DNA of 60,362 bases from Anaerolineae bacterium (GTDB lineage Bacteria > Chloroflexota > Anaerolineae > J036 > Brachytrichaceae). This document shows, piece by piece, positions 158 through 60,362 of this stretch. The position numbers and the translations under genes are program-made. The notes beneath the pieces were generated by a model. It worked only from the letters and a program-made list of their open reading frames with translations, did no database searches and was not told where the DNA came from. Position 1 is the first letter of the stretch. Every line of letters starts with the position of its first letter. Location of the stretch: contig JAHBAL020000053.1 in the NCBI GenBank assembly GCA_018500105.2, positions 1 to 60,362 on the forward strand, written 5' to 3'.

Positions 158-287
158 TTGCATTGTTGAAAACACAGCAAAAATAGAGGCATTCACACCA
201 ATATCCGACTTTAACGAATTTCTTGCCACTTGCAACCTGCAACTTGCTAAGAACTTGATGTTATGATGTAACGCAAGGAATACAAAC

Positions 288-959
288 ATGAAATTCTTTT
301 TAGACAGTGCAAAAATTGATGAAATTCGATATGCCCGCAATATGTGGGCGATTGACGGTGTGACCAGCAACCCGCGCCACATTAAGGCCAGTGGCAAGCC
401 ATTCTTAAGCGCGGTCGAAGACCTCGCCGCCTTGGGGCGCGAATTTGGCGACGATTTCGCCATTAGCGTCGAGGTGAACCCACACCACACCACCGCCGAG
501 GCGATGGTCGAAGAGGGCGAGCGCATTTGGAATATGTGCCCCAGCAATTTCGTGGTGAAGCTGCCGTGTATTGATGCCGGTTACAAGGCGCTGCAAATTT
601 TTGGCGAAAAGGACATTCCCTGCAACATGACCTTATGCTTTAACGCCGTGCAGGCGCTACAAGCCGGTCGCTTGGGCGCACGCTTTATTTCGCCATTTAT
701 TGGCTGGAAAGAAACCAACGGCGAAGAAGTTGAGCATTTTATCGAAGAAATTGTCACCATTTACGACAATTTCGATTTTGCCACCGAGATTTTGGTCGCC
801 GCCGTGCGCAATGGCCGCCAAATCGCCGAGGCCGCCATTGCTGGGGCCGATATCGTCACCGCTGGCTTTGATGTCTATAAAGAAGCCTTTGAACACCCTT
901 ACACCCCCGTCGGCCTCAAGCGCTTCGCCGATGCCTGGGACGCGACACCCTATAAATAA
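288..959 (+). CDS. Transaldolase type 3B / fructose-6-phosphate aldolase family protein
   Basis: 223 aa. N-terminus MKFFLDSAKIDEI...GVTSNPRHI and an internal VVKLP Schiff-base lysine context are typical of short TalC/FSA-type transaldolases. The antisense ORF 71..547 is ignored. Confidence 0.85.
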   Translation: MKFFLDSAKIDEIRYARNMWAIDGVTSNPRHIKASGKPFLSAVEDLAALGREFGDDFAISVEVNPHHTTAEAMVEEGERIWNMCPSNFVVKLPCIDAGYKALQIFGEKDIPCNMTLCFNAVQALQAGRLGARFISPFIGWKETNGEEVEHFIEEIVTIYDNFDFATEILVAAVRNGRQIAEAAIAGADIVTAGFDVYKEAFEHPYTPVGLKRFADAWDATPYK

Positions 960-963
960 AGTA

Positions 964-1037
964 GCAAGTGGAAAGTGCTAAGTGCAAAGTGATTGAGCCA
1001 ACTACTTAGCACTTTCCACTTTTCACTTGGCACTCTC
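964..1037. repeat. Inverted tandem-heptamer array (unit NNAAGTG / CACTTNN)
   Basis: Left arm is GCAAGTG GAAAGTG CTAAGTG CAAAGTG (964-991). Right arm is TACTTAG CACTTTC CACTTTT CACTTGG CACTCTC (1003-1037). An 18-bp perfect complement is AAGTGGAAAGTGCTAAGT / ACTTAGCACTTTCCACTT. Confidence 0.9.
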
Positions 1038-1040
1038 TTT

Positions 1041-2384
1041 ATGGCAAATACTGCAAAATTAGGGGTGGTGTGTTTAGGGCGATTGACATTTGATCATGAA
1101 TTGGCGGTGCAGTGGTATGCCCAAACGCGGGCGCGGCTGAGCGAACTGGCAGGCGTAAGCGTGACGGCGATTGAGTCGTTGGTCATTGAGCAACCCGACG
1201 CCGAGGCTGCAATTGCCACATTGCAAGCGGCGAATGTGGACGCGCTGCTCATCATCAACGGCACATTCGCGTTGGGTGGCTTGGCGATGAGTTTGGGCAA
1301 GGCGCTTAACGTGCCGATCATGCTTTGGGCATGGCACGAACCCGCCGAACAAACCGGCAAATTGCGCCTCAATTCATTGGTCGGGGTCAACCTAAACGCC
1401 AGCAATTTATACAAGCTTGGCTTTCGCCCTCAAACCATTTACGCCGCGCACGATGACAGCGCGGCCTTGCAAAAAATCGGCAACTTCACCCGCGCCGCCG
1501 CTGCCATTCGTGACCTCAACGGCTTGCGCGTCGGCGTGATCGGCGGGCACGCGCCCGGTTTCGACAACCTTGCTGTCAACAAAATGGCTTTGCGTAAAGC
1601 ACTGGGCATCGAGGTGGTTGAGGTGGGGCTGCAAACGTTGATCAGCGCCGCCAACGCCCAAACTGTCGGCGAAAATACAGCCGCATCCCCCAGCAATCAA
1701 TTTGACGACATCAGCGAGCTGAGCGAAACGCAATTGAACAAATATGATGCTTTGGTGGCAGCGGCGCGTGGCTTGGCCGCCAACCAAAAATTCAATGTTC
1801 TGACGATCAAGTGTTGGGGCGATTTGGCCGAGCAATACGGCATCGCGGGCTGCGGGGCGGTGAGCGCCCTCACCAGCGGTGGACTCACCACCGGCTGCGA
1901 AGGCGATGTGTTGGGCGCGGTGTCCATGCGCATCGGCGAGCAATTGACCGGCGAAAAGGCCGTGCTGATGGATTTGGTCTCGACCGACGATGCGACAAAC
2001 ACGGCGCTGTTTTGGCATGTCGGTTGTGCGCCGGTGTGTTTGGCGGCGGCGGGTCAGCCGCGCCATTTGTTCTCGCATTTTGCGGGCGGCAAAGGCGTGA
2101 CGGCAGGCTTCGGACTGCGTCCGGGGCGCGTCACCATTTTGCGGCTGGGCGACGATGGCGAAAATTTGCGCATTTTGGCCTGCACCGGAACGGCGCTCGA
2201 TACCGCCATGCACATTCGCGGAACCGTATCGCGGGTGCAGTTGGATGGAAATGTCGGCGCATTTTTGAACGAAATCCTCGCCAACGGCTGGGAGCATCAC
2301 GTGGTGCTGGCCTATGGCGAAATCTTGCCCGAATTGCAAACCCTCGGCAGCATGTTGGGTGTGCCGGTTGTTGTAGCAGGATGA
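1041..2384 (+). CDS. L-fucose/L-arabinose isomerase family protein (sugar aldose-ketose isomerase-like)
   Basis: The ORF-track start at 993 lies inside the heptamer repeat (peptide FHFSLGTLF). I prefer the ATG at 1041 (MANTAKLGVVCLGRLTF...). The N-terminal swivel-like region with IINGTFALGG and overall length resemble fucose-isomerase-like proteins. Substrate unknown. Confidence 0.6.
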   Translation: MANTAKLGVVCLGRLTFDHELAVQWYAQTRARLSELAGVSVTAIESLVIEQPDAEAAIATLQAANVDALLIINGTFALGGLAMSLGKALNVPIMLWAWHEPAEQTGKLRLNSLVGVNLNASNLYKLGFRPQTIYAAHDDSAALQKIGNFTRAAAAIRDLNGLRVGVIGGHAPGFDNLAVNKMALRKALGIEVVEVGLQTLISAANAQTVGENTAASPSNQFDDISELSETQLNKYDALVAAARGLAANQKFNVLTIKCWGDLAEQYGIAGCGAVSALTSGGLTTGCEGDVLGAVSMRIGEQLTGEKAVLMDLVSTDDATNTALFWHVGCAPVCLAAAGQPRHLFSHFAGGKGVTAGFGLRPGRVTILRLGDDGENLRILACTGTALDTAMHIRGTVSRVQLDGNVGAFLNEILANGWEHHVVLAYGEILPELQTLGSMLGVPVVVAG

Positions 2385-2390
2385 GGAAGG

Positions 2391-2492
2391 GTATCAAAGT
2401 ATCAGAGTATCAAGGTGTCAAAGTTTTGATGACAGTTTGATACTCTGACACCCCTACCCTGCCACTTTGCAACCTGCAACCTTCAACCTGCC
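2391..2492. repeat. Composite repeat: period-8 inverted array (TATCAAAG-type) followed by a GCAACCT heptamer run
   Basis: TATCAAAG TATCAGAG TATCAAGG TGTCAAAG (2392-2423) faces TTTGATACTCTGACAC (~2436-2451). It is followed by GCCACTTTGCAACCTGCAACCTTCAACCTGCC (2461-2492). Confidence 0.8.
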
Positions 2493-2552
2493 CCCCTAAC
2501 AAAAAAATTCCGTCTATTGGAATGATACCGAATCGTCTATCATAGGCAGTAT

Positions 2553-4287: not shown

Positions 4288-4322
4288 AAAGCGGGGCGTG
4301 TGATGACACGCCCCGCTTTTTT
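4288..4322. terminator. Bidirectional intrinsic terminator between convergent fhs and ahcY
   Basis: AAA-GCGGGGCGTG-TGATGA-CACGCCCCGC-TTTTTT. This is a 10-bp GC-rich stem flanked by an A-tract and a T-tract. Confidence 0.8.
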
Positions 4323-8208: not shown

Positions 8209-8240
8209 CTCAAATGTCTCAAATGTCTCAAATGTCTCAA
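8209..8240. repeat. Direct tandem 9-mer CTCAAATGT x3.5
   Basis: CTCAAATGT CTCAAATGT CTCAAATGT CTCAA sits immediately 3' of the ABC exporter stop and upstream of the HD gene start. No inverted partner was seen. Confidence 0.9.
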
Positions 8241-11292: not shown

Positions 11293-11299
11293 AGGTACC

Positions 11300-11332
11300 A
11301 GAAATCGGGTTTCTTCCAGAAACCCGATTTCT
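11300..11332. terminator. Bidirectional hairpin between convergent OCD-family and GntR genes
   Basis: AGAAATCGGGTTTCT-TCC-AGAAACCCGATTTCT, a perfect 15-bp stem. Confidence 0.7.
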
Positions 11333-12101: not shown

Positions 12102-12130
12102 TTGACAAATTGTTAATTTAATATTACACT
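12102..12130 (+). promoter_or_regulatory. Candidate sigma-70-type promoter for the eda-kdgK cluster
   Basis: TTGACA (12102-12107), 17-nt spacer, TACACT (12125-12130). It lies in the divergent GntR/eda intergenic region, about 110 nt upstream of the eda ATG. Confidence 0.35.
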
Positions 12131-12240
12131 ATCAAAATAATACTGTCAAGCTATACTACAGGTTGTGTTTTCTCCTCCTTTCTTTTTGAACGGCCTAGCA
12201 GAATGAATGAAAGTTCAAACTGTTAGGCCAAATTTTTTAT

Positions 12241-12885
12241 ATGCGTGAAGCAACACTTCAAACGATTCAGCACGGCAAGGTGGTTGCAATTGTGCGTTTG
12301 CCGGATTTGGCAGATGCAATTGAATTGTCACGCGCCTTAATTTCGGGCGGCATCACGGCGCTTGAATTTACATTAACCAACAGCGAGGCGCTAAATGCAT
12401 TGCAAGCGGTGAAGGCCGCATTGCCCGAATTTGGGCGCGGCGAGGCGGTGATCGGTGCTGGCACAGTGATCACCCCCGACCAAGTGCGGGCCTCGGTGGC
12501 TGCTGGGGCGCAATTTATCGTCGCGCCCACCACCAATTTTGCATCTATTGCGGCTAGCCGCGAACTCGATGTGCCGATTATGCCCGGCGCGTATACGCCG
12601 ACCGAGATTTTAGCCGCATGGGAAGCGGGCGCGTCGGTAGTCAAGGTGTTTCCAGCCCGTGCGCTTGGCCCCAATTTCATCAAAGATGTGCGCGAGCCGT
12701 TGCCATTTCTCAAGCTCATGCCCACCGGCGGCATTGGCGTAGACAATGTGGCGGCGTATTTGCAAGCGGGCGCGTTCGGCGTCGGCGTTGGCGGCAATTT
12801 GGTGGACAAAAAACTCGTCGCTGCCCGCGACTGGGCCGCCCTTCGTGCCAAGGCACAAGCGTTTATGGAAGCCACCAAGACTTGA
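12241..12885 (+). CDS. eda: 2-dehydro-3-deoxyphosphogluconate / 4-hydroxy-2-oxoglutarate aldolase
   Basis: 214 aa class I aldolase, with VVAIVR, ITALEFTLTN, VKVFPA (Schiff-base Lys context) and PTGGI. Confidence 0.88.
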   Translation: MREATLQTIQHGKVVAIVRLPDLADAIELSRALISGGITALEFTLTNSEALNALQAVKAALPEFGRGEAVIGAGTVITPDQVRASVAAGAQFIVAPTTNFASIAASRELDVPIMPGAYTPTEILAAWEAGASVVKVFPARALGPNFIKDVREPLPFLKLMPTGGIGVDNVAAYLQAGAFGVGVGGNLVDKKLVAARDWAALRAKAQAFMEATKT

Positions 12886-12994
12886 GTGCTAAGTGCCAAG
12901 TAAAAAGTGCTAAGTGCTAAGTGCTAAGTGGGGGTGAGTGTGTTCTACTTTTTACTTAGCACTTAGCACTTAAGCACTTAGCACTTGAGCACTC
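12886..12994. repeat. Inverted tandem-heptamer array (CTAAGTG / CACTTAG) filling the eda-kdgK spacer
   Basis: The left arm has 6 units (CTAAGTG CCAAGTA AAAAGTG CTAAGTG x3). The right arm has about 7 units (TTACTTA GCACTTA GCACTTA...). It starts directly after the eda stop codon. Confidence 0.9.
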
Positions 12995-13003
12995 CAAAGA
13001 ATT

Positions 13004-13960: not shown

Positions 13961-13964
13961 TAAG

Positions 13965-14083
13965 GAGTGCTAAGTGCTAAGTGCTAAGTCCTAAGTCCTA
14001 AGTTTTGGGTAATAGAAATATCAAATTGCTAATCCAAACTTAGGACTTAGGACTTAGGACTTAGCACTTAACACTTGACACTC
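13965..14083. repeat. Inverted tandem-heptamer array (GTGCTAA/GTCCTAA vs TTAGGAC/TTAGCAC)
   Basis: Left arm is GTGCTAA x3 then GTCCTAA x2. Right arm is TAGGACT x3, then TAGCACT, TAACACT, TGACACT. The loop is about 35 nt. It fills the kdgK-SDR spacer. Confidence 0.9.
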
Positions 14084-14089
14084 AGAACT

Positions 14090-14964: not shown

Positions 14965-15664
14965 GCCCTCACCCCCTCCCCCCTCTCCCTAAGGGGAGAG
15001 GGGATGATGGGTTAGTTTTAGGTATTAAAGTTAAGAAACTTGAAAGTCCATAACAACCATCCGTAATCCCCTCTCTCCAAAGAATGAAGAGGTAAGGGAA
15101 GTAAGCAATGGCAACCGAACGAAGACCACACCCTGAGATTGTTCAGCGAGCAAAAGCCTTACGACAACGATCTACACTAGCTGAGTCGAAACTTTGGTTT
15201 TGGCTGCGCGATCGCAAATTAGGTGGGTTTAAATTTCGACGACAACACCCCATTGAGCGTTTCATTGCAGATTTTGAGTGCGAAAGTTGCAAGTTAATTA
15301 TTGAATTAGATGGCGCTAGTCACGCTGATCAAACTGATTATGATGCATTACGAACTGATCGCTTAACAGAACTTGGCTATGTGGTCATGCGATTTAGCAA
15401 TGATGATGTGCAACTGCGTTTGAATGAAACAAAAGAGAAAATACATCATGAGTGCCTGCGAAGACAGCAAGAATTAATTCTACAAATCTAACTTTAGCCC
15501 TTACCTCATCCCCTCTCTACAAGGGGAGAGGGGATGATAGGTTTGTTTTAGGCATTTAAGTTATAACTTTGCAAGTATTAAACAAGAAAGCCTCTTGCTT
15601 AAACATCCAAAACAAACATCCGCACTCCCCTCTCCCTATGGGAGAGGGGGTTGAGGGTGAGGGT
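14965..15664. mobile_element. DUF559 cassette bracketed by nested inverted/direct GGGGAGAGGGG-hairpin repeats (possible selfish element)
   Basis: Outer inverted repeat: GCCCTCACCC (14965-14974) against GGGTGAGGGT (15655-15664). Inner inverted repeat: GAGGTAAGGG (15089-15098) against CCCTTACCTC (15498-15507). Three hairpins of form CCCCTCTCC-loop-GGAGAGGGG lie at ~14980-15003, ~15510-15533 and ~15627-15649. An imperfect direct repeat of roughly 100 nt (clearly alignable but diverged and with indels; identity not computed) flanks the ORF on both sides. The cassette is more AT-rich than its flanks. Confidence 0.4.
15108..15491 (+). CDS. DUF559 (Vsr/restriction-endonuclease-like fold) domain protein
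   Basis: 127 aa. LAESKLWFWLRDRKLGGFKFRRQHPIERFIADFECESCKLIIELDGASH...RTDRLTELGYVVMRFSNDDV matches the DUF559 pattern (FRRQ..IG.YI.DF.....LIIE.DG..H). Confidence 0.85.
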   Translation: MATERRPHPEIVQRAKALRQRSTLAESKLWFWLRDRKLGGFKFRRQHPIERFIADFECESCKLIIELDGASHADQTDYDALRTDRLTELGYVVMRFSNDDVQLRLNETKEKIHHECLRRQQELILQI

Positions 15665-16966: not shown

Positions 16967-16979
16967 AACATCAACCATA

Positions 16980-45753: not shown

Positions 45754-45787
45754 CGTCTAGTTGTCATATCTTAAAATGCCACCTATT

Positions 45788-47209
45788 TCACCTAAGTAAG
45801 GCAATAGGACGTAAATTACGTTTCAAGAAAGCCTCCATATAATTAGCTTTAAGAAAGGCGGCTATTTTCAACGAATCATGCCAAGTTTCCACATAAGCTC
45901 TGGATAATTGTCCTAATGCTTTTAGGTTATGTTGTCTGTAAGTTAGATATTCTTTTAATACCTCATAAATGGTTGTAGGTGTTGCTTGGATTAAGGGCAT
46001 ATCCGCTTTCATTGGTATGGGAACAAATTGTAAATCGTTAGGTTGAATAAAACAAATAACTGGTTTGCCTAATGCCATTAACTCGACAGCCAAACCACCA
46101 TACCATCCAATTAAAAGCTGATCAATCAATAAATCGGCTTTCTGATAAAGTTTCTTCGCTTCTATATATGACAGGTTTTCCACCAATTGAAAATCGAATT
46201 CAACGCCTTCATCTTGCAAAATTTTTGACAGTACAGGTAGGCCACAAGACATACCTTCTATAGCGCTGAGGGCGTACCCCATCAGAAATTGTTCCGCTAA
46301 AATATCACACCCTGTTTGCATTAATTCTCTAATCTTATCATTCTGTGTCTTCTCTATTAGCAGCAATTCGATCTTTAACCCTTCTAATTCTATTAACGCG
46401 TTGACAGAATCAATCAAAAATTCAGTTTCTTTAATTGATCTATGATTTGGCGTATGAATAATTTTTACATACCCATTAATTCCGTCATTCATCGAATAAA
46501 AAGTTTTTGGCGACCACAAATTTATATCAATAACCACATGATTTACAGGCAATAAATCCCATCGGCTCATCCCATCGACAGAAGAGAAAAGTCCCATCAC
46601 AATATCAGCATGTTTTGACCAATAAGTTACTTTTTGAGAAATTTCATATTCTTTTTTTGCTCCAATTGGATAGTTATATAGTAGACCATGTTGCCAAGAC
46701 TTATCTATGATTTTTGAGTACATGTAAGCATCTCCGCCATATGCCATTAAAACCGTTTTCTTTTTTGCTAACTTAAGTAAAAATGCTTCGAACATCCAAA
46801 GTGAAGTGCTTCCTAAAATGCCACCATGAAAAGGAAAATGAAAAATGTCGAAATTAAGCAAGGAAAAACAGAATCCCCAGTATGGTGCAAACAATAAGGA
46901 GAAAATTTTCCTCAAGGTCGCTAGCGGAAATTGAATCAATTCATATATGTATATATCATAATCATTTTTTTTGTTGATTGCGCTGTAGTAATTAAAAACG
47001 ACTGTGTGAGACTTGTACCCAAGTTTTTGCATCGCCTGTGACCAATATTTATTAGAAATAATTGGAGAAGGTCCCCACATCAGGCGCGGAATTTTTTTGA
47101 GGTCTGAGAACATCCGAACAGACAAAGAAAATACAAATAAAAAAGGCAGAACTATAAAAGAAATAAAAATATGCAAAAATCTATAGATTTTAAAAAACAA
47201 GATTACCAA
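45788..47209 (-). CDS. GT-B fold glycosyltransferase-like protein (paralogue C) with N-terminal TM
   Basis: C-terminal ADLLIDQLLIGWYGGLAVELMALGKPVICFIQP. The TTG start at 47209 is uncertain; internal ATG alternatives exist. Confidence 0.45.
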   Translation of the reverse strand: MVILFFKIYRFLHIFISFIVLPFLFVFSLSVRMFSDLKKIPRLMWGPSPIISNKYWSQAMQKLGYKSHTVVFNYYSAINKKNDYDIYIYELIQFPLATLRKIFSLLFAPYWGFCFSLLNFDIFHFPFHGGILGSTSLWMFEAFLLKLAKKKTVLMAYGGDAYMYSKIIDKSWQHGLLYNYPIGAKKEYEISQKVTYWSKHADIVMGLFSSVDGMSRWDLLPVNHVVIDINLWSPKTFYSMNDGINGYVKIIHTPNHRSIKETEFLIDSVNALIELEGLKIELLLIEKTQNDKIRELMQTGCDILAEQFLMGYALSAIEGMSCGLPVLSKILQDEGVEFDFQLVENLSYIEAKKLYQKADLLIDQLLIGWYGGLAVELMALGKPVICFIQPNDLQFVPIPMKADMPLIQATPTTIYEVLKEYLTYRQHNLKALGQLSRAYVETWHDSLKIAAFLKANYMEAFLKRNLRPIALLR

Positions 47210-47256
47210 CCTCTTTTGATGTTGTGCTTACATCCAAAACAATTAATTTGAATATC

Positions 47257-47820
47257 TTAACTTATATTAACAAAAGGCTTATCTAATAAAGTCGATATAT
47301 CGGACAGAACAACTTGTCTTTTTACTCGGCATGGTGTCCCAAATGCTACACTATGGGATGGTATATCGTTATCAACATATGAATTAGCACCAATAACAAC
47401 CCCATCACCTATTGCAACACCACGCGCAATAATAGTATTTGGACCTATATAACACCTGTCACCAATTTTTACGTGGCCGTATTCATATGGCGCGATACCA
47501 CCAGACAACGCCCATTTAACTGTATCGTGTGTATATATTTGGACACCCGCACTAATACTACAATTATTGCCAATCTCAAGTTTGCCAGAGCCATCCAAAA
47601 TAACGAAAGGGCCGATCCAAGTGTTACTTCCGACTCGTACATCGCCATACACATAAGCATTGTGATAGATGCTCGTTTTATCTCCGAAGCCTAAATTTTT
47701 TGCGCGTTGCCACCGGTCAAATAACATTTCGTCAAAGGGTAAATCCCTATGCCACTTGGCACGTTTTTCAAAACGCAAGTATTCATACAAATCTTGAATT
47801 AAACGAAGAAGCCGTTCCAT
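47257..47820 (-). CDS. Left-handed beta-helix (hexapeptide) acetyltransferase
   Basis: Hexapeptide repeats IGNNCSISAGVQIYTHD and IGDRCYIGPNTIIARGVAIGDGVVIGANSYV. The N-terminal helical region is as in Mac/WbbJ-type O-acetyltransferases. Confidence 0.8.
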   Translation of the reverse strand: MERLLRLIQDLYEYLRFEKRAKWHRDLPFDEMLFDRWQRAKNLGFGDKTSIYHNAYVYGDVRVGSNTWIGPFVILDGSGKLEIGNNCSISAGVQIYTHDTVKWALSGGIAPYEYGHVKIGDRCYIGPNTIIARGVAIGDGVVIGANSYVDNDIPSHSVAFGTPCRVKRQVVLSDISTLLDKPFVNIS

Positions 47821-47850
47821 GGGTTTTGAATAACAAATTTCAACAAAATA

Positions 47851-48900
47851 TTAGATGCGCTTTGCGCAAACAGTAATGCCGCTTTCATCCTCATACAATC
47901 TTTCTATGGATAAATTACCTTCTTCACACCAGTGTCGAATATCTTCGGCACTTTGCCGATGAGCATAAGTTGGGCGATACCAATCAAAATTGACATGCAC
48001 ATTTTCTTCAAATGACAAGTCTGAATTCCAAAATAATTTGGTGAAGTGATAATAAATCAGGCGCTGAACGTCATATCGTCCTGATCTAATTTCAAGCAGC
48101 GGCACATCTGGCAAAGACACAGAGACATTTAATTCTGCGAGTGCACGCCCTAGTTCAGTTAATGAACGCATCGCATCCCACGATTCATCATTTGAAAGAC
48201 CACTTATTTTATGGCGAATATAATCATCCGCAAATTCACGGACTGGGCCTTTACGCCGATACACATAAAAATGAAATTTACCTCCGCTTGTTAACACCCG
48301 TGCTGCCGATAACAAGGCGGCACGGGTAGAGGGTGTGTGATGTAAGACACCTTCAGAAAACACCGCATCAAATGTGCCATTTGCAAATGGCAACTGTAAC
48401 GCATCGGCTTGCACAAAATGAGTATTTGGCAAATGCCCTAGCCGCTCATATGCAACATCTACAGCTTCTGAAATATCTGCACCCACATACATGGTATTTC
48501 TATGCCATTTAGGCGAATCTAACCAAATTGATGCTGAAAATCCACTGCCACAACCAATGTCCAACACACATTGTTTGCTATTATAGAACGCTGTCCAATT
48601 TTCAATTGAATCAAACCCATATTTCTGCAAATACCATTGAGCGGCTGTTGCTTTTGCAGTAGGTGAGTCATAAGTATCACGCTTTTTCCATTTAAACCCG
48701 AATGAGTCACTGGTTTGGAGTTGTCCGATATCATCGCTAATCACAAATCGTGGAATTCCATTATGGATAGGGTATTTGATTTGGTTGCGATTAAGAAAGT
48801 AACCATCATGAATTGCTTCTATGTTTTCTTGGGCTGCATATAAGGTAAGTGTAGACTGATCGCCTGGGTCAACTAATAAACGATAAAATTGTAAATTCAT
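47851..48900 (-). CDS. SAM-dependent methyltransferase with N-terminal Trm112-like domain
   Basis: N-terminal ...KYPIHNGIPRFV (Trm112p-like), motif I VLDIGCGSGFSA, and VFSEGVLHH. Confidence 0.75.
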   Translation of the reverse strand: MNLQFYRLLVDPGDQSTLTLYAAQENIEAIHDGYFLNRNQIKYPIHNGIPRFVISDDIGQLQTSDSFGFKWKKRDTYDSPTAKATAAQWYLQKYGFDSIENWTAFYNSKQCVLDIGCGSGFSASIWLDSPKWHRNTMYVGADISEAVDVAYERLGHLPNTHFVQADALQLPFANGTFDAVFSEGVLHHTPSTRAALLSAARVLTSGGKFHFYVYRRKGPVREFADDYIRHKISGLSNDESWDAMRSLTELGRALAELNVSVSLPDVPLLEIRSGRYDVQRLIYYHFTKLFWNSDLSFEENVHVNFDWYRPTYAHRQSAEDIRHWCEEGNLSIERLYEDESGITVCAKRI

Positions 48901-48904
48901 AGGA

Positions 48905-50848
48905 CTAAACTGTAAAATAAGCCTTAAGCCACCACTCCAAGCTAAGAAACGACCATAATAATAAACGTTTATTTTCGACCCCGTGACAATGTGTCTCTAA
49001 AGTTTGCTGCACAAAGGTTGGTTGCAATAACTCATAAATATGGGCCGATTTAGGTTGCAATAACGTTTGAATATAGTCTAAGCTTTCGCCACGAAACCAC
49101 GATGCATCTGGGGCGCTAAACCCTTGTTTGGCGCGAGTGATAGTATCGGGTGGCACCCATTGCCGCATGGTTTCGCGTAGCACCCATTTGCCATCGCCAT
49201 AACGCTGATCGTAACGCTGCCGTTTGCCAATTTCATTTTCTTTCATCAGTGTTTGGGCTGTTTGGTCTAAGTGTTGCAATTTATAATTAGCCGGCAATTG
49301 CAATGCAAAATCAACCAAGTCATTATCTAAGAATGGCACACGGCTTTCTAGGCTATGGGCCATACTCATTTTATCTTCAACAATAAATAGCCCATGCAAA
49401 AATGTTTTTGCTTCAAAATACAATGCCGCATGAATGCGATCTTCCACTGTCTCGGGAACACGCCCAAAACCATTTAGCACAGTTTGAAAAGCCGAAAAAG
49501 CACTGTGATTGCCAATCTTACGTTTTGTAGCTGCATTGAACAAGTTGAGTTTGTCCTCGTAAGATACCAGTCTTTGCCAAAATTGATAATAATTCGAATA
49601 ATAATCGCCCGCTTCTAACCCACGATAATAACGCCATGGGTAACCGCCAAATAGCTCGTCGCCCCCTGTGCCAGATAGACACACCTTTACAAATTTACTT
49701 GCCAATCGCGCAGTATAATAATTGGGATAACATTGACCTACCCGCAAGTCTTCTAAGTGCCAAATTAGCTCTGGCATTACGTGTTCCATGTCGCCAGCGT
49801 GCAAAACATTTTCATAATGTTCGGTTTTAAATAAATTGGCTAATGCTTCTGAAGCTGGACGTTCATCAAACCCCATCTCTAGTCCTGAGGCCGAAGAAAG
49901 ATCAAATCCACCGGTAAACGTGTGAATACGTTTTAGTTTTTGTGAAGCAATTGCCACAATTGACCCTGAATCCATGCCTCCACTCAAATAACTACCAACA
50001 GGCACATCACTCATTAATTGTCGTTCAACCGCTTGTGCAAATAAACGACGCAATTCTATTTGTGCCTCTTCAAATGATATATTTTGACGTTGTGTCTGAG
50101 TAGGAAAATAAAAATCCCAATATTGTTTTATTTTATAAACCTCAGTTAAAGGCAACGATGCATCTGAAAGGTCAAGTGTGAGTGTATGGCCTGCTGGCAA
50201 AATACGAATATTATTAAAGAGCGTCAAATCGCCAAGCACATTTTGAAAGGTAAAATATTCATTTAACGCTGGATAGCATATCTCGCGTGATACTTTAGGG
50301 TGCGTCAAAATGGCTTTTATTTCAGAAGCAAAAATAAATAACTTGTCGCTAACATAATAATAGAGTGGTTTTACCCCAAAACGATCCCGCGCCAGAAAAA
50401 GCTGCTGGCGTTGTGCATCCCAAATTGCAAATGAAAACATGCCATTAAAATGTTTGACACAGTCGCCGCCCCATATTTCGTATGCCTTTAGCAATGTTTC
50501 TGTATCTGACCGTGAGTTAAAAGTTGCCCCGAATGTAGAAAGTATTTTTCGTAGCTCTAAATGGTTATACAGCTCACCGTTGTAAATAATGACTTTATCT
50601 GCGGCTTGGTTTAACATGGGCTGCGCCCCACCGGGGCTTAAATCCACAATGGCTAATCGGCGATGTCCGAATGCTAAATTAGCGTTTTCAATAGACCGAT
50701 GCAGTCGAATCGCCTGCGTAGCAGTGTTGGCAAAACAATAACCCTCCCCATCTGGGCCACGATGTTTAATCGTATCAGTCATGCGTTTGATCAAATTTGC
50801 ATCAAACGCCATTTCGGGATGTTGATAAAAACCAACTAAACCACACAT
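48905..50848 (-). CDS. Asparagine synthase (glutamine-hydrolysing) family amidotransferase (WbpS-like candidate)
   Basis: N-terminal nucleophile MCGLVGF, and PP-loop SYLSGGMDSGSI. It lies inside a glycan cluster. There is a 13-bp overlap with the upstream DegT. Confidence 0.85.
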   Translation of the reverse strand: MCGLVGFYQHPEMAFDANLIKRMTDTIKHRGPDGEGYCFANTATQAIRLHRSIENANLAFGHRRLAIVDLSPGGAQPMLNQAADKVIIYNGELYNHLELRKILSTFGATFNSRSDTETLLKAYEIWGGDCVKHFNGMFSFAIWDAQRQQLFLARDRFGVKPLYYYVSDKLFIFASEIKAILTHPKVSREICYPALNEYFTFQNVLGDLTLFNNIRILPAGHTLTLDLSDASLPLTEVYKIKQYWDFYFPTQTQRQNISFEEAQIELRRLFAQAVERQLMSDVPVGSYLSGGMDSGSIVAIASQKLKRIHTFTGGFDLSSASGLEMGFDERPASEALANLFKTEHYENVLHAGDMEHVMPELIWHLEDLRVGQCYPNYYTARLASKFVKVCLSGTGGDELFGGYPWRYYRGLEAGDYYSNYYQFWQRLVSYEDKLNLFNAATKRKIGNHSAFSAFQTVLNGFGRVPETVEDRIHAALYFEAKTFLHGLFIVEDKMSMAHSLESRVPFLDNDLVDFALQLPANYKLQHLDQTAQTLMKENEIGKRQRYDQRYGDGKWVLRETMRQWVPPDTITRAKQGFSAPDASWFRGESLDYIQTLLQPKSAHIYELLQPTFVQQTLETHCHGVENKRLLLWSFLSLEWWLKAYFTV

Positions 50849-52011
50849 TCAAACCCCTTGACTAAATGCTCAATCACATAATCTTGTTCAATCTCAGTCA
50901 TTTGAGGATATAAAGGCAGCGTCAAGCTTAGCCCTTCAGCCATGGTCGCATAAGGATAATTTTCAGGTGAGATATCATACTTATCTGCATAGTAACCTGT
51001 ATTTACTGGCGCGTGAGTGCCTTGTCGAGTCGAAACACCCTGTTCTTCTAATATCAACATTAATTGATTTCGCTGATCACTGAGCCTTTGTAAATTTGCC
51101 ATACTTGGGGTTTGCGGTTGAAACAAACATACATAAGCTTGATAACCATGTACATATTCACTTGGCACAATAGGTGTTTGAAGCCATGAAATATGCTTAA
51201 GCTTTTCATCATATCTTTTTGCCCAATGAACACGTGCCGACATAATTTCAGCAGCCCTTCCTAGTTGAACACAGCCAAGTGCGCCTTGAATATCTGTCAT
51301 TCGGTAGTTATAACCTAAATGATTATAGTCAGCTAGTAAAAATGCTGCCTTATTGTGGTGGCGAACGTGATCGGTGCGCGAGGCTCCGTGATCTCGTAAG
51401 CTACGGCTTAATGTCGCCAAATCGGCGCGAGGCGTTGTAATCATACCGCCTTCGCCAGTTGTAATTGATTTACGTGGGTGAAAACTAAAGCAACCAGCAT
51501 CGCCAAATGTGCCCGCATGTCTGCCATGATACCAAGCGCCAAACCCACAAGCTGCATCTTCAACAACCCACAAATGATGCTTCTTTGCAAGTTCCAAAAG
51601 CGGAATCATATCTGCACATAATCCAAAAAGATGGACGGGAATAATACCGACTGTACGTGGGGTAATTAATGATTCAATCTGTAAAATATTAATATTAAAG
51701 GTTTGAAGATCAATATCGCAGAATATTGGAATCGCCCCCATGTACTCCACCACATTGGCGGTAGAGACCCATGTTAAGGCGGGCACAATGACTTCATCGC
51801 CAGGTTTAAGACCGAGAGCAGCAACAGAAATATGAAGCGCAGTTGTGCAATTGCTTGTTGCAATACTAGATGTTGAGCCAGAATAAGCAGAAAATAACTC
51901 TTCAAACTGCTGAACATAAGGCCCCTGAACAACCCATCCGGCTTCTAATGGTTTTTGAACAGCTAATAATTCTTCTGCCCCAAAGAATGTTTTTGTAATT
52001 GGAATTTTCAC
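50836..52011 (-). CDS. DegT/DnrJ/EryC1/StrS family aminotransferase (second copy)
   Basis: SFHPRKSITTGEGGMITT PLP-lysine context, and an N-terminal region conserved with the first copy. Confidence 0.85.
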   Translation of the reverse strand: MKIPITKTFFGAEELLAVQKPLEAGWVVQGPYVQQFEELFSAYSGSTSSIATSNCTTALHISVAALGLKPGDEVIVPALTWVSTANVVEYMGAIPIFCDIDLQTFNINILQIESLITPRTVGIIPVHLFGLCADMIPLLELAKKHHLWVVEDAACGFGAWYHGRHAGTFGDAGCFSFHPRKSITTGEGGMITTPRADLATLSRSLRDHGASRTDHVRHHNKAAFLLADYNHLGYNYRMTDIQGALGCVQLGRAAEIMSARVHWAKRYDEKLKHISWLQTPIVPSEYVHGYQAYVCLFQPQTPSMANLQRLSDQRNQLMLILEEQGVSTRQGTHAPVNTGYYADKYDISPENYPYATMAEGLSLTLPLYPQMTEIEQDYVIEHLVKGFECVV

Positions 52012-52023
52012 AAATCTTCAACC

Positions 52024-52986
52024 CTATTTTGATCGCCAATTGATTAAACGCATCAACCCTTCGCTTAAAGAATATCTATAAACAAACCCTAAATCTTGTT
52101 GTGCTTTTTTCGGACAGCCAATTCGATTTTTTACTAACCGTCGAGCATCATCTTCATTGTATGGTTTATAAGTAACCTTAAGTGGAGATTGCTTTAACGC
52201 AAGAATCAAATCACATAGTTGTCGAATCGTAGTTTGAATTCCTGTGCCAACATTATAAAACTCATCTGTGACCTCAGATTGTAATGCAAGCACATTACAA
52301 CGGGCAACATCTTCAACATCAATAAAGTCATATGCTTGTGACCCATCGCCATTAATCGTGGGAGATTCACCTGCATCAATTTTGTTTAACATAATCGGGA
52401 TGACACCCGTATAAACAGCCGTTTGATCTTGGTGCGGCCCATAAACATTCATATAACGTAACCCAACATAACTTAATCCATAACGATCATAAAAGGCACG
52501 ACACATTGCCTCTCCAGCAATTTTGGTGGCCCCATAAAAATTTCGATTATTAAATGGATGCATTTCAGTCATAGGCACTTCGACCGCATCGCCATAAACA
52601 GAAGCTGAAGATGAATAGACTAAGCGTTGAATATTATTTTTAACACACGCTTCTAGAACATTAAACGTGCCTTCTATATTGACATGAAAGGCTGTTCTGG
52701 GAAAATCTTTGCAATGTAATAGCCACATCGCAGCTAAATGAATAACGCCATCCATACCCTTCATTGCATCATTTAAGATGTCTATATCACGAATATCTCC
52801 GCCATTTGCATACAATTTACAGCGAACATCCGATAAAAAAGGTTCAATAAATTCATATTCACCACGCGCAAAATTATCATATATAACAACTTCAGCAACG
52901 TCGGTTTTTAAAAGTTCAGCAACAACATGGCTGCCTATAAAACCAGCCCCACCAATCACAAGAATTTTTTTATTTTTTAAAATCAT
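52024..52986 (-). CDS. NAD-dependent epimerase/dehydratase (extended SDR; UDP-sugar 4-epimerase/4,6-dehydratase-like)
   Basis: ILVIGGAGFIGSH, and YGATKIAGE (Y-x3-K). Confidence 0.8.
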   Translation of the reverse strand: MILKNKKILVIGGAGFIGSHVVAELLKTDVAEVVIYDNFARGEYEFIEPFLSDVRCKLYANGGDIRDIDILNDAMKGMDGVIHLAAMWLLHCKDFPRTAFHVNIEGTFNVLEACVKNNIQRLVYSSSASVYGDAVEVPMTEMHPFNNRNFYGATKIAGEAMCRAFYDRYGLSYVGLRYMNVYGPHQDQTAVYTGVIPIMLNKIDAGESPTINGDGSQAYDFIDVEDVARCNVLALQSEVTDEFYNVGTGIQTTIRQLCDLILALKQSPLKVTYKPYNEDDARRLVKNRIGCPKKAQQDLGFVYRYSLSEGLMRLINWRSK

Positions 52987-54554
52987 TGAACTTTAACCTC
53001 TACTAAATCAAGTATAGTTTTTGTTTCATTTAGATCAAAACACTTATTCCAGCCCTTCCCTGATAACCCAAGCGATGCACACCCTTTACTTAAATCAAGT
53101 TTATCAAATGGCAAATAGACTTCGTCGCCACGAACCGATCGGGCTTGTAATCGTTGAGCAAGAACTTTTTTCGTATTATCATCACTTTGATCAGGAGCAG
53201 CAAACCCAATCCCCAGCACTTTTGGATTTTTAATTGACTCAAATTCAAATAATATTACCATAGCATCCACAGCTTCCGCATCCCAAGGATCATTCGCCAC
53301 CACCACAATCGGCAACGTAGGATTCTCACGCGAAAATGCCACCACACGGTCGAGTCGCTGACGAAGCGCCGACGTGCGGCTTAGATTATCGAGCGACAAC
53401 TGACGCATTTGCTGCGCCCAAATAGCAACCAACGGCATGCTAACGAGCAACAACGCTAACGGAACCCCAACCCGCACCGCCTGCCAAGGCAGCCGACCCA
53501 ACATCACCCGCAGCCAACACACCACCGCGATTCCCAAAAAGATCAGCCCCGGGAAATCGTAGCGGCTTGTGCCATGAGGCCACAAGCCTTTGTAGAACAA
53601 ATACTGCACCGCGCTCAGCCCCAAACACACCACGCTGACAAATAGCCAACGTAGCTCGGATGATAATCGCCTGCTGCGCCACCACAAATATGCGCCCAAG
53701 CCCACATTCACCACCAACAGCACCGCCGCGCCAACCACATAATTAAACGCCGGGCGATAATAGCGAAAATAGAGCAGCAGCAACTTCAGCCGCCCTTTCA
53801 AACTCGTATCATCGCCATAAAAATCGCTGCCGCCGATAAAGTTGGCGAGCAAAAAGACGGCGACAGTCACGACACATAACAGCAAAATAAGCAGCGCCGC
53901 CCAAAACAAACGCCAGCGCCGCGCTCGCCACAACCCATAAGCCGCCCACATCAACAATGGCAGCAAGAAAAGATAATTTTCTTTGACCCCAACCGCGATC
54001 AAACTACCCACCAAAATCGCCAACCAGCGCCATCCCGATGCTTGTTTGGGCGAGGCTTTGACAAGCCCCGACAAGCCGAAGGCAATCAGCCCCATGGCAG
54101 GCACAGTGTAATTTTCAGGTGGGCCGAGCCGCCCGAAAATATCGGCCCAATACGGTGCGCCCAATGTGAGCAACGACAAAGCCCCACCAAGCCCCCAGCC
54201 AAACCAGCCGATGAAATAATAGGCCATGAGCGCAGCAAAACCGGCAAACGCCGCCATACGCACCCCATACCATAGCGCCACATTGTCGCGCCACAAGGCT
54301 GTCTCGATCAACCGCAACGAATAGTAAATGGGGCGAAAACGCCGCGCCTCAAATGGATGCCCGACTTCGGTGTCGAGCAAAAAGCCCGGCATTTCAGAAA
54401 CATACAGCACGCGGTCAGGGCCGAGGTATTTAATCGTCTCGTGGTCATCAATTAACCCAAACCAACTGCCCAGATTTGGCCCAAAGCAATAATAGCTGAG
54501 TGCCATTGCACAGCATAGGCAAACCATTGCGCGGGCAAATCTATTTTTTAACAT
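52983..54554 (-). CDS. Polytopic membrane protein (GT-C-like) with C-terminal soluble domain
   Basis: About 11 TM helices, with an early loop LIDDHETIKY. The body of the gene is GC-rich, while the last ~300 bp (52983-~53280) is AT-rich like the downstream island. There is a 4-bp overlap with the epimerase gene. Confidence 0.3.
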   Translation of the reverse strand: MLKNRFARAMVCLCCAMALSYYCFGPNLGSWFGLIDDHETIKYLGPDRVLYVSEMPGFLLDTEVGHPFEARRFRPIYYSLRLIETALWRDNVALWYGVRMAAFAGFAALMAYYFIGWFGWGLGGALSLLTLGAPYWADIFGRLGPPENYTVPAMGLIAFGLSGLVKASPKQASGWRWLAILVGSLIAVGVKENYLFLLPLLMWAAYGLWRARRWRLFWAALLILLLCVVTVAVFLLANFIGGSDFYGDDTSLKGRLKLLLLYFRYYRPAFNYVVGAAVLLVVNVGLGAYLWWRSRRLSSELRWLFVSVVCLGLSAVQYLFYKGLWPHGTSRYDFPGLIFLGIAVVCWLRVMLGRLPWQAVRVGVPLALLLVSMPLVAIWAQQMRQLSLDNLSRTSALRQRLDRVVAFSRENPTLPIVVVANDPWDAEAVDAMVILFEFESIKNPKVLGIGFAAPDQSDDNTKKVLAQRLQARSVRGDEVYLPFDKLDLSKGCASLGLSGKGWNKCFDLNETKTILDLVEVKVQ

Positions 54555-57173: not shown

Positions 57174-57187
57174 GAGGCGATTATAGT

Positions 57188-57424
57188 TAAGAACCAAGAG
57201 CTAAGAACCAAGAGCCAAGAATCAAGAATTAAAAGAGAAGAAGTTAGTATTTTGGGTCTTGCAAACGACATCACGCAAAATATATTACTAATTCTTAGCT
57301 CTTAGCTCTTGATTCTTGGTTCTTGGTTCTTGATTCTTGGTTCTTGATTCTTGGTTCTTGGTTCTTGATTCTTGATTCTTGGTTCTTGGTTCTTGGTTCT
57401 TGGTTCTTGGTTCTTGGTTCTTGT
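57188..57424. repeat. Asymmetric inverted tandem-heptamer array: 6 units (NAAGAAC-type) facing 19 units (TTCTTGG/TTCTTGA)
   Basis: Left arm: TAAGAAC CAAGAGC TAAGAAC CAAGAGC CAAGAAT CAAGAAT (57188-57229). Right arm: 19 consecutive heptamers at 57292-57424, namely TTCTTAG, CTCTTAG, CTCTTGA, then a mix of TTCTTGG and TTCTTGA ending in six TTCTTGG in a row plus TTCTTGT. Confidence 0.95.
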
Positions 57425-57442
57425 CCTATAATTCCCCATCCA

Positions 57443-59353: not shown

Positions 59354-59398
59354 AGCCACTACCGGTATAACCTAAAAACTCGAAAAAGCGAAAATCGT

Positions 59399-59439
59399 GG
59401 AGAAACGGATCATTCAACCAAAAGAAACCCCGTTTCTCC
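59399..59439 (-). terminator. Hairpin followed by a T-rich tract on the minus strand (3' of the PPOX gene)
   Basis: GGAGAAACGG (59399-59408) pairs with CCGTTTCTCC (59430-59439). On the minus strand the hairpin is followed by a T-rich tract. Confidence 0.45.
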
Positions 59440-59476
59440 GCAACTTCCGCTGTTCCGAGTTAAAAAATGCGCCGCG

Positions 59477-59827
59477 TTACCACGACAGCCACTTGTGTGG
59501 GGTGATCTCGATCAGCGCCGTATAACCCGGATCGGTGTGAATATCCCAGTTGTATTTGGCCTTAAACACCTCGGCGATGTCGGCGGGAAATGGGGCCTCG
59601 ATAAACCGCGCCACACCCTCGCCGATGTAAGGTTTGTCGCCATTTTCGAGCGAGAATGCCACATTGGGATTGGCGGCCAAATTGCGGGTTTTGACCGCCT
59701 TGCCTTGGGTGCAAACGTAAATTTTATCGTGCAGCCACACAAACCAAATCGGCGTGAGATGCGGCCTGCCATCGGGGCGCGTGGTCGCCAGCCAAATATT
59801 GCGCTCAGTATTAAGTCGGGGGTCCAT
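59477..59827 (-). CDS. Pyridoxamine 5'-phosphate oxidase family protein (PPOX-class small flavin/deazaflavin-binding split barrel)
   Basis: 116 aa, with LATTRPDGRPHLTPIWFVW and KVRNL-type (KTRNLAANPNV) motifs. Confidence 0.75.
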   Translation of the reverse strand: MDPRLNTERNIWLATTRPDGRPHLTPIWFVWLHDKIYVCTQGKAVKTRNLAANPNVAFSLENGDKPYIGEGVARFIEAPFPADIAEVFKAKYNWDIHTDPGYTALIEITPHKWLSW

Positions 59828-59879
59828 AGGGTTATTTTAGAGCAAGTGTTTTTGGGGTGACAAGATGAACGCCTTGCCG

Positions 59880-60170
59880 CTACATCCTAAACAGCTTGCG
59901 GGCCGCATACACCGCCACCGCCTCGCGCACATAAGCCGAGGTAATCGGCGCGTCATACACGTCGAGCAATTCTTGCGCCACCGCCTCAAGCTCGGCTTGG
60001 GTCGAACGACCCGGGCGCAACAGTTCATACATCTTCAGCAGGCGCTCGTTGGGCACGCGGGTCAATTCGGCAGCGCGGCGCAGGTTTTCGCCCAATTGCG
60101 TAAACCCAGCATCATGCGCAGTCTGCGCTTGCTTGCGCAGTGTTTCAGACGAAATAGAAAAATCACTCAT
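59880..60170 (-). CDS. Diol/glycerol dehydratase small (gamma) subunit family protein, stand-alone
   Basis: MSDFSISSETLRKQAQTAHDAGFTQLGENLRRAAELTRVPNERLLKMYELLRPGRSTQAELEAVAQEL...AYVREAVAVYAARKL aligns by eye with the PduE core (ITPETLRLQA...AGR..LA.NF.RAAELTAVPDDRILEIYNALRPYRST.EELL.IA..L...ICAAFVREAA.LY..RK.L). The ORF-track extension to 60281 is repeat-derived. Confidence 0.75.
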   Translation of the reverse strand: MSDFSISSETLRKQAQTAHDAGFTQLGENLRRAAELTRVPNERLLKMYELLRPGRSTQAELEAVAQELLDVYDAPITSAYVREAVAVYAARKLFRM

Positions 60171-60362
60171 GATATGAAAATTTTTGCAGAGTTGCAGGAG
60201 GCAGGGTTGCAGGTTGCAGGTTGCAGGTTGCGACGTCAAGAGCGATGCTACTCTGCCACTCGCCACTTTGCAACCTGCCACTTGCCCCTCTGCAACCCTG
60301 CCTCCTGCAACTCTGCAAAAATTTTCATATCATGAGTGATTTTTCTATTTCGTCTGAAACAC
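60140..60362. repeat. Large palindrome: perfect >=73-bp inverted repeat (60140-60212 / 60290-60362) including the first 31 nt of the PduE-like CDS
   Basis: The arms are exact reverse complements. The 77-bp centre (60213-60289) is heptamer-type repeat (GGTTGCA x3 / TGCAACC-like). The right arm is truncated by the window end. Confidence 0.95.
60332..60362 (+). CDS. Partial (5' end only) mirrored copy of the PduE-like gene
   Basis: ATGAGTGATTTTTCTATTTCGTCTGAAACAC encodes MSDFSISSET, identical to codons 1-10 of the minus-strand gene. It continues beyond the window. Confidence 0.5.
   Translation, partial: MSDFSISSET

Follow-up and report, generated by a model that had tools for sequence, protein, structure and literature searches.

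The 60,362-nt contig JAHBAL020000053.1, from here on the window, carries in its intergenic spacers arrays of tandem 7-nt units; at most of these loci a run of units faces, across a loop, a run of the complementary units, the array being self-complementary. The arrays are of a kind already described, as STRR (short tandemly repeated repetitive) sequences or as convergent heptamers, and are found here in an uncultured Chloroflexota-like genome. Period-7 arrays were called by Tandem Repeats Finder (TRF), an inverted-repeat search found the facing arm for most of them, and gene starts were set by Pfam domains and orthologues.

TRF gave period-7 arrays at every locus named in the initial annotation of the window. 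In a period scan, the window contains 7 strict period-7 runs (359 bp), against 0.0 across 30 dinucleotide-preserving shuffles; 7 runs are found for period 14, a multiple of 7, one each for periods 9 and 15, and none for the remaining periods in the range 2-13. Period 7 is the only tandem period strongly over-represented in the window. A reverse-complement unit is present at 150 nt or less for 11 of the 13 window arrays, while neither of the control partners, a gapped direct copy and a reversed, uncomplemented copy, was found for any of the 13. When coverage is counted over 288-59353, array bases amount to 639 of 2,637 in spacers (24%) vs 5 of 56,429 in coding DNA. Arrays are present in 9-10 of the 21 spacers of 40 nt or more, about half rather than the "most" initially stated. 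The unit differs from locus to locus, as had been noted, the window units including NNAAGTG, AGTCCTA, TGCAACC, AATTACG, AAGAACC and AGAATTT. GGG runs in phase are absent from all window units. Rfam gave no match at gathering score across the whole window, and a tRNA scan of the window likewise returned nothing.

Eight loci fold into hairpins, with z-scores from -4.9 to -13.5. Two of them occupy consecutive spacers of the eda|kdgK|SDR operon (SDR, short-chain dehydrogenase/reductase). At 12883-12996, in the eda|kdgK spacer, AGTGCTA units face TAGCACT units (TRF; inverted pair; -60.4 kcal/mol, z -8.0), the eda stop codon lying within the first unit; at 13961-14086, the kdgK|SDR spacer holds a composite AGTGCTA + AGTCCTA hairpin, with outer and inner variants mirrored across 40-nt arms, 95% complementary (-67.5 kcal/mol, z -13.5). 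An NNAAGTG / CACTTNN hairpin at 958-1037 fills the spacer from the stop codon of a TAL_FSA gene (959) to the next ATG (1041) (TRF; inverted pair; -34.8 kcal/mol, z -6.0). At 2388-2450, directly 3' of the stop (2384) of a fucose-isomerase-like gene, the hairpin is made of GTATCAAA units (TRF; -25.2 kcal/mol, z -6.5); their period is 8, as already reported for the inverted portion of the locus delimited at first as 2391-2492. AATTACG and CGTAATT units, separated by an 83-nt loop, are found at 19189-19327 between the gidB stop (19323, minus strand) and the start of an FtsH-like gene (19113) (-39.4 kcal/mol, z -4.9). The A+T-rich AGAATTT/AAAATTC hairpin at 24750-24838 (27-nt arms, 93% complementary; -20 kcal/mol, z -4.9) encodes in its 5' arm the last residues and the stop (24776) of a GT2 gene, and its 3' arm ends at the WbqC ATG (24838). 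The last two are located in divergent spacers: GAAAGTG / CACTTTC at 33504-33636, between a PD40-repeat gene (minus) and a gene of unknown function (plus) (TRF; inverted pair; -46.5 kcal/mol, z -5.1), and, at 57186-57430, AAGAACC vs TTCTTGG, between an epimerase gene (minus) and a Castor/Pollux-type channel gene (plus, true ATG 57443) (TRF 18.9 copies, score 201; -98.1 kcal/mol, z -10.4). In this latter hairpin about 7 units face about 19, in agreement with the reported inequality of the arms in unit number. A ninth locus folds too (z -12.4): at 60185-60316, upstream of a diol-dehydratase small-subunit gene (minus), TTGCAGG units face CCTGCAA + GCCACTT units, the sequence from 60290 on being a perfect fold-back copy.

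Three further arrays, of the TGCAACC/GCCACTT family, are one-armed, and no hairpin fold is found at any of them; all three lie just upstream of start codons. The first, at 218-252 (plus strand; z -2.2), is of pyrimidine type, consists of GCCACTT/GCAACCT units, belongs to the same family as those at 2461 and 60262, and lies 40 nt 5' of a transaldolase-family ATG (288). The second, also of pyrimidine type, at 2451-2496 (plus; TRF; z -1.9), consists of CCTGCCA/CTTTGCAA/CCTGCAA units, 60 nt 5' of the start of formate-tetrahydrofolate ligase (2553). The third, at 20048-20100 (minus, which is the sense strand; TRF period 8/15; z 0.0), has CCTGCAA/CTATGCAA units and lies at the true gidB start region: the GidB domain begins at residue 50 of the long open reading frame (ORF) running to 20144. 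The statement that every locus is self-complementary consequently holds for the eight hairpin loci and, with a caveat on the fold-back, for 60185-60316, and fails for these three. The sequence GCCACTTTGCAACCTGC, said to recur at 3 loci, is exact at 2461 and 60262 only; the copy at 20059 (minus strand) has 2 mismatches, and a gapped copy, with a 1-nt deletion, is found at 225. An exact 17-mer is common to the arrays at 2461 and 60262, 58 kb apart. Corrections are thus due for the three one-armed loci and for the end of the contig, an artefact; with these made, the observation stands as real, on overwhelming statistical grounds.

The artefact involves the right end of the window, where 60290-60362 is the 100% reverse complement of 60140-60212 (73 nt) and ends at the last base. 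Of the repeat, 45 nt are unique sequence, in which the diol-dehydratase small-subunit gene (59880-60170, minus, PF02287) begins; the whole is probably an assembly fold-back of the contig at a hairpin array; the outer 3' arm of 60185-60316 is therefore not to be counted as independent evidence. This perfect fold-back, together with the finding that contigs of relatives (L134, L136, L148, L149, L150) end inside arrays, could suggest that the arrays as a whole are assembly or sequencing artefacts. This is hardly conceivable: the same two spacers hold hairpin arrays in independent assemblies from different samples, another assembly (L001) is 100% identical over 1,185 nt, two arrays included, and arrays also occur in closed chromosomes, in isolates and in reference Nostoc plasmids.

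The position of the arrays relative to genes is strict. An array starts at, or includes, the upstream stop codon, as in TGA-GTGCTAAGTG after eda, and its 3' end falls about 8-15 nt short of the next ATG; the stop-to-start distance left outside the stems is about 8-20 nt. Arrays fill in this way the stop-to-start space in the eda|kdgK|SDR operon, are found between other co-directional gene pairs and occupy two divergent spacers, as anticipated. The initial annotation also placed them between convergent genes; none of the three convergent spacers of the window contains a heptamer array. Two of these junctions, 4288-4319 and 16978-17014, hold classical bidirectional terminators (A-tract, G+C stem, T-tract), while at the third, 11298-11332, a plain 15-bp hairpin is not followed by a T-run; ordinary terminators are thus in use in this organism, next to the heptamer hairpins.

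The arrays themselves are not transcription terminators: no array scored terminator-like in a terminator scan of the window, and no T-run is found 3' of the stems. That they might act as non-canonical intrinsic, bidirectional terminators or attenuators is suggested by the length and stability of the stems, by the prevalence in pairs from other genomes of A-rich 5' arms and T-rich 3' arms (33 of 40 pairs), as in bidirectional terminators, and by RNA-seq data from Xanthomonas, where transcripts started or stopped at G-rich heptamer repeats more than at control repeats (PMC4692102). Such a role is quite improbable for arrays whose places are divergent promoter spacers and the gaps separating co-transcribed metabolic genes, and which are absent from the convergent junctions, two out of three of them provided with classical terminators.

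The arrays also affect gene prediction. The 5', purine arm closes all three frames in 56 of 92 cases, against 50.6 expected from composition; its stop codons are thus accounted for by base composition, with no need to suppose selection. In the 3' arms the reading frame usually stays open and, for this reason, ORF callers extend downstream genes into them. The false N-terminal extensions listed initially are accounted for by arrays at 993, 14075, 20144, 33594, 57323 and 60281; the one at 15569 is due instead to a family of G+C-rich hairpins.

Orthologous spacers were compared in relatives of the window, contigs from other samples, whose KdgK proteins are 94%, 87%, 86% and 85% identical to that of the window (kdgK 89% and about 77% at the nucleotide level). 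Relatives keep hairpins in both spacers, eda|kdgK (L134, L135, L148, L150) and kdgK|SDR (L135, L149, L150), with differences in unit counts and variants. All orthologous array spacers fold (z -5.9 to -8.5), and the AAGT/ACTT core is kept while the flanking bases of the unit change. The kdgK|SDR spacers of L135 and L150, 94 and 87 nt long, differ by exactly 7 nt. The polymorphism in unit number, for which a check in relatives had been proposed, is therefore present, with the architecture retained, and supports the suggestion that slippage acts on an existing hairpin. A more distant relative, at 73% protein identity, has a 43-nt spacer without a hairpin, and no arrays in 18 kb.

A more radical change is seen between L148 and L149, which are 99.3% identical in kdgK: the 3' arm of their eda|kdgK array is of CAGGACT type in L148 and of TAGCACT type in L149. 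The 5' arm of L148, AGTCCTG, is the exact complement of its CAGGACT-type 3' arm. The L149 contig begins inside the 3' arm, its 5' arm not being on the contig; the window array, AGTGCTA/TAGCACT, has a 3' arm resembling that of L149. Taken together, these arrangements indicate that both arms changed together, the eda|kdgK array of L148 having apparently switched unit as a whole. The unit acquired is the one found in the adjacent kdgK|SDR array.

No array is present in the divergent GntR<>eda spacer, which is conserved in all these relatives. It features, at 12109-12240 of the window and in L134, L135, L137 and L148, the block TTTAATATTACACT...ATAATACTGTCAAGCTATA.TACAG...CTCCTCCTTTCTTTTTG, kept even in the 73%-identity relative and presumably corresponding to the operator/promoter of the 2-keto-3-deoxygluconate operon.

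Occurrence in other genomes was evaluated by searching the pattern AAGTGNNAAGTGNNAAGTG-N(5-35)-CACTTNNCACTT, for which chance expectation was estimated well below one match, over 185,579 species genomes: NNAAGTG-type hairpins were found in at least 114 stretches. Among the matches listed, to which the distribution reported here refers, about ten phyla are represented, according to record titles. Acidobacteriota contribute many Pyrinomonadaceae and a Granulicella isolate; Chloroflexota contribute Promineifilaceae, Ardenticatenaceae, Leptofilum, Thermoflexus, Herpetosiphon and Thermomicrobiales; Bacteroidota contribute Saprospiraceae, Haliscomenobacter and Lewinellaceae. Planctomycetota, Desulfobacterota, Verrucomicrobiota and Gemmatimonadota are also present, along with a few Proteobacteria, Bacillota and Patescibacteria. 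Several matches are located on megabase contigs or closed chromosomes. In the 777 kb surrounding these matches, 157 further arrays of other units were found, 103 of which have an inverted partner, vs 9 and 7 in controls. The general pattern is that of a different unit at each locus, each locus being self-complementary. When arrays near AAGTG hairpins are taken without bias, only 12 out of 148 are themselves AAGTG. An AGTGA core is 6.9 times over-represented relative to composition. The surroundings of distant KdgK relatives in unrelated metagenomes (64% identity or less), 84.6 kb in all, were used as a negative control and yielded 1 array. Among named KdgK homologues, those most similar come from Chloroflexota (Thermoflexales, Roseilinea, Brachytrichaceae), at about 60% identity.

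Viral contigs and cyanobacterial plasmids carry arrays as well. Six stretches in IMG/VR contain the AAGTG-first pattern, and one viral contig of 28.5 kb has array hairpins between most of its genes. In contigs L146 / L144 (IMGVR_UViG_3300033153_015561) and L142 arrays lie at almost every gene junction, as NNAAGTG hairpins in one contig and as one-armed TGAATTA-type arrays in another. The plasmid pNPUN01 of Nostoc punctiforme has hairpins of the same architecture and polarity as those of the window; in the first 50 kb of pCC7120alpha from Nostoc PCC 7120 only three arrays are found, all one-armed. In pNPUN01 (L147, 1551-2006) a gene annotated as "four helix bundle protein" lies in the loop between a purine-type array and its complement, and in pCC7120alpha (L140, 3776-4193) a four-helix-bundle gene is followed by a one-armed array. 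A common family may unite these Nostoc proteins with those encoded by 23S rRNA intervening sequences.

The two arms of a hairpin are not equivalent. In the cross-genome tests, pairs matching the AAGTG search pattern were kept separate, as "seeded", from those formed by other units in the retrieved DNA, or "non-seeded". Among the matches listed, the arm with more purines comes first, on the 5' side, in 38 of the 40 non-seeded and in all 48 seeded pairs, and the same is true for all window hairpins and for 5 of the 6 hairpins in 100 kb of pNPUN01. By symmetry, an array that is purine-first on one strand is purine-first on the other as well; the order is independent of gene orientation, and holds in divergent spacers too. 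The mirror-image pattern, with the CACTT arm first, gave no match in IMG/VR, as compared to the six AAGTG-first stretches, and none in the 151 loci compared.

The arms were reported to mirror each other in unit order. Across genomes this is supported: in 68 of 90 pairs, shuffling the units along one arm gives a hairpin less stable than the real one; within the window itself the effect is modest. The possibility that the structure is tuned on the sense transcript found no support, as no asymmetry emerges from the 58 co-directional spacers: neither the sense nor the antisense fold is the more stable one (27 vs 31), and G-U pairs are 114 vs 139. Equal folds on both strands fit a palindrome at the DNA level, rather than a structure tuned on one transcript.

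Polarity and mirroring bear in opposite ways on the hypothesis that the arrays are scars of break repair, where a polymerase, either templated or slipping, would extend the two 3' ends left by a double-strand break with purine-rich heptamers, and head-to-head joining would follow. Such a process, akin to telomere fusion, would explain at once the orientation-independent polarity, the unequal arms, the unrelated loops and the one-armed arrays. The arms, however, mirror the order of unit variants more than independent synthesis predicts, which disfavours a break-healing origin; in addition, units differ between loci, excluding a fixed template, hairpins persist and co-evolve at fixed sites, and no enzyme was found. 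To our knowledge, no enzyme is known to add heptamers at breaks. Taken together, these points make this origin very improbable.

Among described repeats, STRRs are the closest. Their units, as reportedly given by Mazel et al. in 1990, include CCCCAGT, TTGGTCA and CAACAGT. Window arrays have in common with STRRs the tandem 7-nt units, the presence of several unit families in one genome, the intergenic location and the ability of inverted arrays to fold between co-transcribed genes; the purine-first polarity is shared with the STRRs of pNPUN01. In filamentous cyanobacteria an STRR hairpin lies between the co-transcribed genes hupS and hupL, where a function in transcript stability or translational coupling was proposed, never shown (PMC2670836); the eda|kdgK|SDR spacers (z -8.0 and -13.5) are in the same condition. 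What differs is the host, Chloroflexota-like and not a heterocystous or filamentous cyanobacterium, along with the units, NNAAGTG, TGCAACC and others; the class has, for this reason, to be taken in a wider, cross-phylum sense. The resemblance to STRRs anticipated in the initial annotation is therefore substantiated by the same architecture and polarity in Nostoc punctiforme plasmid DNA.

A second term of comparison is given by the GGGAATC / GGGGA(C/T)T heptamers of Xanthomonas and Nostoc, strongly intergenic, near ORFs, and arranged, 70-75 times in a genome, as inverted pairs called convergent (Rehm et al. 2015, PMC4692102). Past stop codons their G-rich strand is the coding one, ahead of starts it is the non-coding one, and array position is conserved between related species, while length is variable (PMC4692102). 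Polarity, position and turnover are the same in the window arrays and in those of relatives: period 7 is over-represented, purine strands converge, and position is conserved with variable length and sequence. GGGAATC repeats contain G-tracts, and were studied as G-quadruplex formers; the window units, in contrast, are devoid of G-tracts, and many unrelated units coexist. A third set, the direct TAACTGA heptamers of Beggiatoaceae, cyanobacteria and Bacteroidetes, is located a few nt 5' of starts, is patchily distributed across phyla and shows 7-nt indels between strains (MacGregor 2015, PMC4679880). The three one-armed arrays of the window occupy the same position before starts, while most window loci are self-complementary, unlike TAACTGA repeats, which are direct and come in sets of 2-6 copies, a single inverted instance being reported in the genome described there (PMC4679880). 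The self-complementary architecture, which the initial annotation implied to be undescribed, is already in print, both for hupS-hupL (PMC2670836) and for Xanthomonas (PMC4692102). That no functional description exists is still true: a period of seven is the commonest among intergenic tandem repeats of prokaryotes, and no function is known for it (PMC6344855). Heptamer over-representation is also credited to Mrazek et al. 2007, as cited in PMC4679880.

A function may be imagined for the arrays as platforms for a protein reading single-stranded nucleic acid in 7-nt steps, e.g. cold-shock-domain proteins or ribosomal protein S1, with the hairpin acting as a switch which hides or exposes the pyrimidine-rich arm beside the start codon. 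The 7-nt period matches the footprint of cold-shock domains, about one per 6-7 nt (PMC4679880); pyrimidine-type arms and all three one-armed arrays are just 5' of starts, on the sense strand, and the same position rule is reported for other unit families (PMC4692102). The retention of the AAGT/ACTT core in relatives, with changes in the flanking bases, and the occurrence of AAGTG hairpins in about ten phyla and in viral contigs are also consistent with a reader, and in Nostoc the deletion of heptamer repeats alters the output of a reporter (bioRxiv 10.1101/2022.06.06.494920). The units within one genome (GGTAGCC, GGGATGA, AATTACG, AAGAACC and others) are, on the other hand, too diverse for one sequence-specific reader, pairing shows no sense-strand bias, and no candidate protein is encoded among the window genes. 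We regard this explanation as unlikely.

Similarity had also been suggested to repetitive extragenic palindromes (REPs) and to their composite forms, bacterial interspersed mosaic elements (BIMEs); REP doublets forming hairpins (REPINs) belong to the same group. Like these, window arrays are abundant, intergenic, palindromic DNA, often within operons and able to form mRNA hairpins. REPs, however, are imperfect palindromes of 20-40 nt, with one conserved sequence per family, tied to REP-associated tyrosine transposases, or RAYTs (PMC3116915, PMC3733652), while the arrays consist of tandem 7-nt units, with locus-specific sequence and variable length. No conserved 20-40-nt palindrome with a GTAG or CGTC tag is common to the window loci, and no RAYT (Y1 transposase), other transposase or reverse transcriptase was identified by Pfam among the about 50 window genes: the suggestion has to be dropped. 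Features of MITEs, the miniature transposable elements with inverted repeats, are lacking as well: the arrays have no terminal inverted repeats, target-site duplication or fixed length, and abut stops without a duplicated flank. A spread as miniature mobile elements, REP/REPIN or MITE-like, driven by a transposase encoded elsewhere, would fit the recurrence of unit families across loci, with exact 17-mers 58 kb apart, the presence in viral contigs, and the L148 hairpin, which wholly changed unit type at 99.3% flanking identity. The lack of the above hallmarks and of a transposase gene among those of the window, together with the stability of array positions in relatives while the interior turns over, leaves little room for this hypothesis, which we consider very improbable.

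The loci are best explained as STRR-type, fast-evolving, self-complementary heptanucleotide microsatellites, of the kind described in filamentous cyanobacteria and Xanthomonas; to this reading, as an account of their nature and origin, we assign a probability of about 60%. Replication slippage in 7-nt steps would make arrays grow and shrink, the limits being set by the upstream stop codon and by the initiation region that follows. The arms would be kept complementary by a template switch inside the hairpin, or now and then from one array to another, and/or by counter-selection of expansions that do not fold out of the way. Selection may contribute, because only an insertion that folds away leaves stop and start about 8-20 nt apart. 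The fitness effect of the arrays may be close to neutral.

Transcribed arrays within operons would form RNA stems of 20-45 bp, bringing the stop and the next start close again, in such a way that translational coupling could survive. Long double-stranded RNA stems are generally substrates of RNase III and barriers to 3' exonucleases; when cut by the former, or blocking the latter, the stems would punctuate polycistronic mRNAs and separate their cistrons. The intercistronic hairpins of phage T7 are long stems cut by RNase III, leaving processed mRNAs, and in Coxiella an rRNA intervening sequence has heptameric repeats at its RNase III site (PMC4990558). With both systems the analogy concerns only the way of working, as long stems between cistrons: T7 sites are not built of tandem repeats, and the window hairpins are known from sequence. 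That RNA processing is a biologically important consequence of the arrays is a tentative proposal, in our view less likely than not.

Several points weigh against slippage as a sufficient explanation. The exact 17-mers 58 kb apart and the wholesale switch in L148 suggest copying between arrays, beyond simple slippage. Slippage gives no reason for a period of 7; it leaves unexplained the purine-first order, observed in 38 of 40 non-seeded pairs at any gene orientation, as assigned by a crude ORF caller, and likewise the reappearance of AAGTG/AGTGA-type cores in different phyla and in viral contigs. The density of arrays, high in a 28-kb viral contig, speaks for their being of some use, or else for a process that generates them very actively. 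Finally, RNase III cleavage and translational coupling are suggested by what is generally known of long double-stranded RNA stems.

Other features of the window were noted in the course of the analysis. The G+C-rich hairpins responsible for the ORF extension at 15569 belong to two direct repeats of about 105 nt (14970-15075 and 15500-15634, 73-87% identity), which surround a DUF559 (Vsr-like endonuclease) gene at 15108-15491, each copy holding a CCCCTCTCCC-N4-GGGAGAGGGG hairpin. In L135 and L150 the SDR|enolase spacer contains a single hairpin of this type and no DUF559 gene; the locus looks like a gene insertion accompanied by a duplicated G+C-rich hairpin element. At the left end of the window, 1-157 is a closed multi-hairpin element, where two 8-bp hairpins lie inside a terminal helix of 15 bp, GGCUGUUCAAAAGUC / GACUUUUGAACAGCC (-65.2 kcal/mol, z -6.8, no Rfam match); it begins at base 1, may be cut, and might represent either a miniature element or a small non-coding RNA. 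At 8209-8240 the unit CTCAAATGT, 9 nt long, is perfectly repeated in tandem, in 3.6 copies, in the spacer between an HD-domain gene and an ABC transporter gene. The region from about 38000 to 54000 is a low-G+C island (35-44%, vs about 50-56% elsewhere), packed with genes for sugar modification and glycosyltransferases (DegT aminotransferases, UDP-glucose dehydrogenase, asparagine-synthase-like, flippase), with almost no spacers and no heptamer arrays; it may have been horizontally acquired.

A broader interpretation would see purine-first self-complementary arrays as a pan-bacterial class of structured intergenic sequences sharing one conserved grammar: a purine arm at the exit of the upstream ORF is followed by a pyrimidine arm ahead of the next start, the arms co-evolve, and AAGTG/AGTGA cores are common to about ten phyla and to phages. 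This appears rather unlikely. If true, it would imply a conserved machinery making or reading the arrays, candidates being an RNase III-dependent punctuation of operons, in which the two ends of each cistron, 5' and 3', might be paired, or a dedicated pathway of repair or synthesis working in 7-nt steps.

At a practical level, the arrays break short-read assemblies, produce fold-back contig ends and mislead gene callers into N-terminal extensions. As for their distribution, the hairpin form of heptamer arrays is not confined to cyanobacteria or Xanthomonas, being found in Acidobacteriota, Chloroflexota, Planctomycetota, Bacteroidota, Desulfobacterota and others, as well as in viral contigs. 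The window itself is an ordinary instance of a known, unexplained class, of which the distribution, the polarity rule and the turnover of both arms are the parts worth following.

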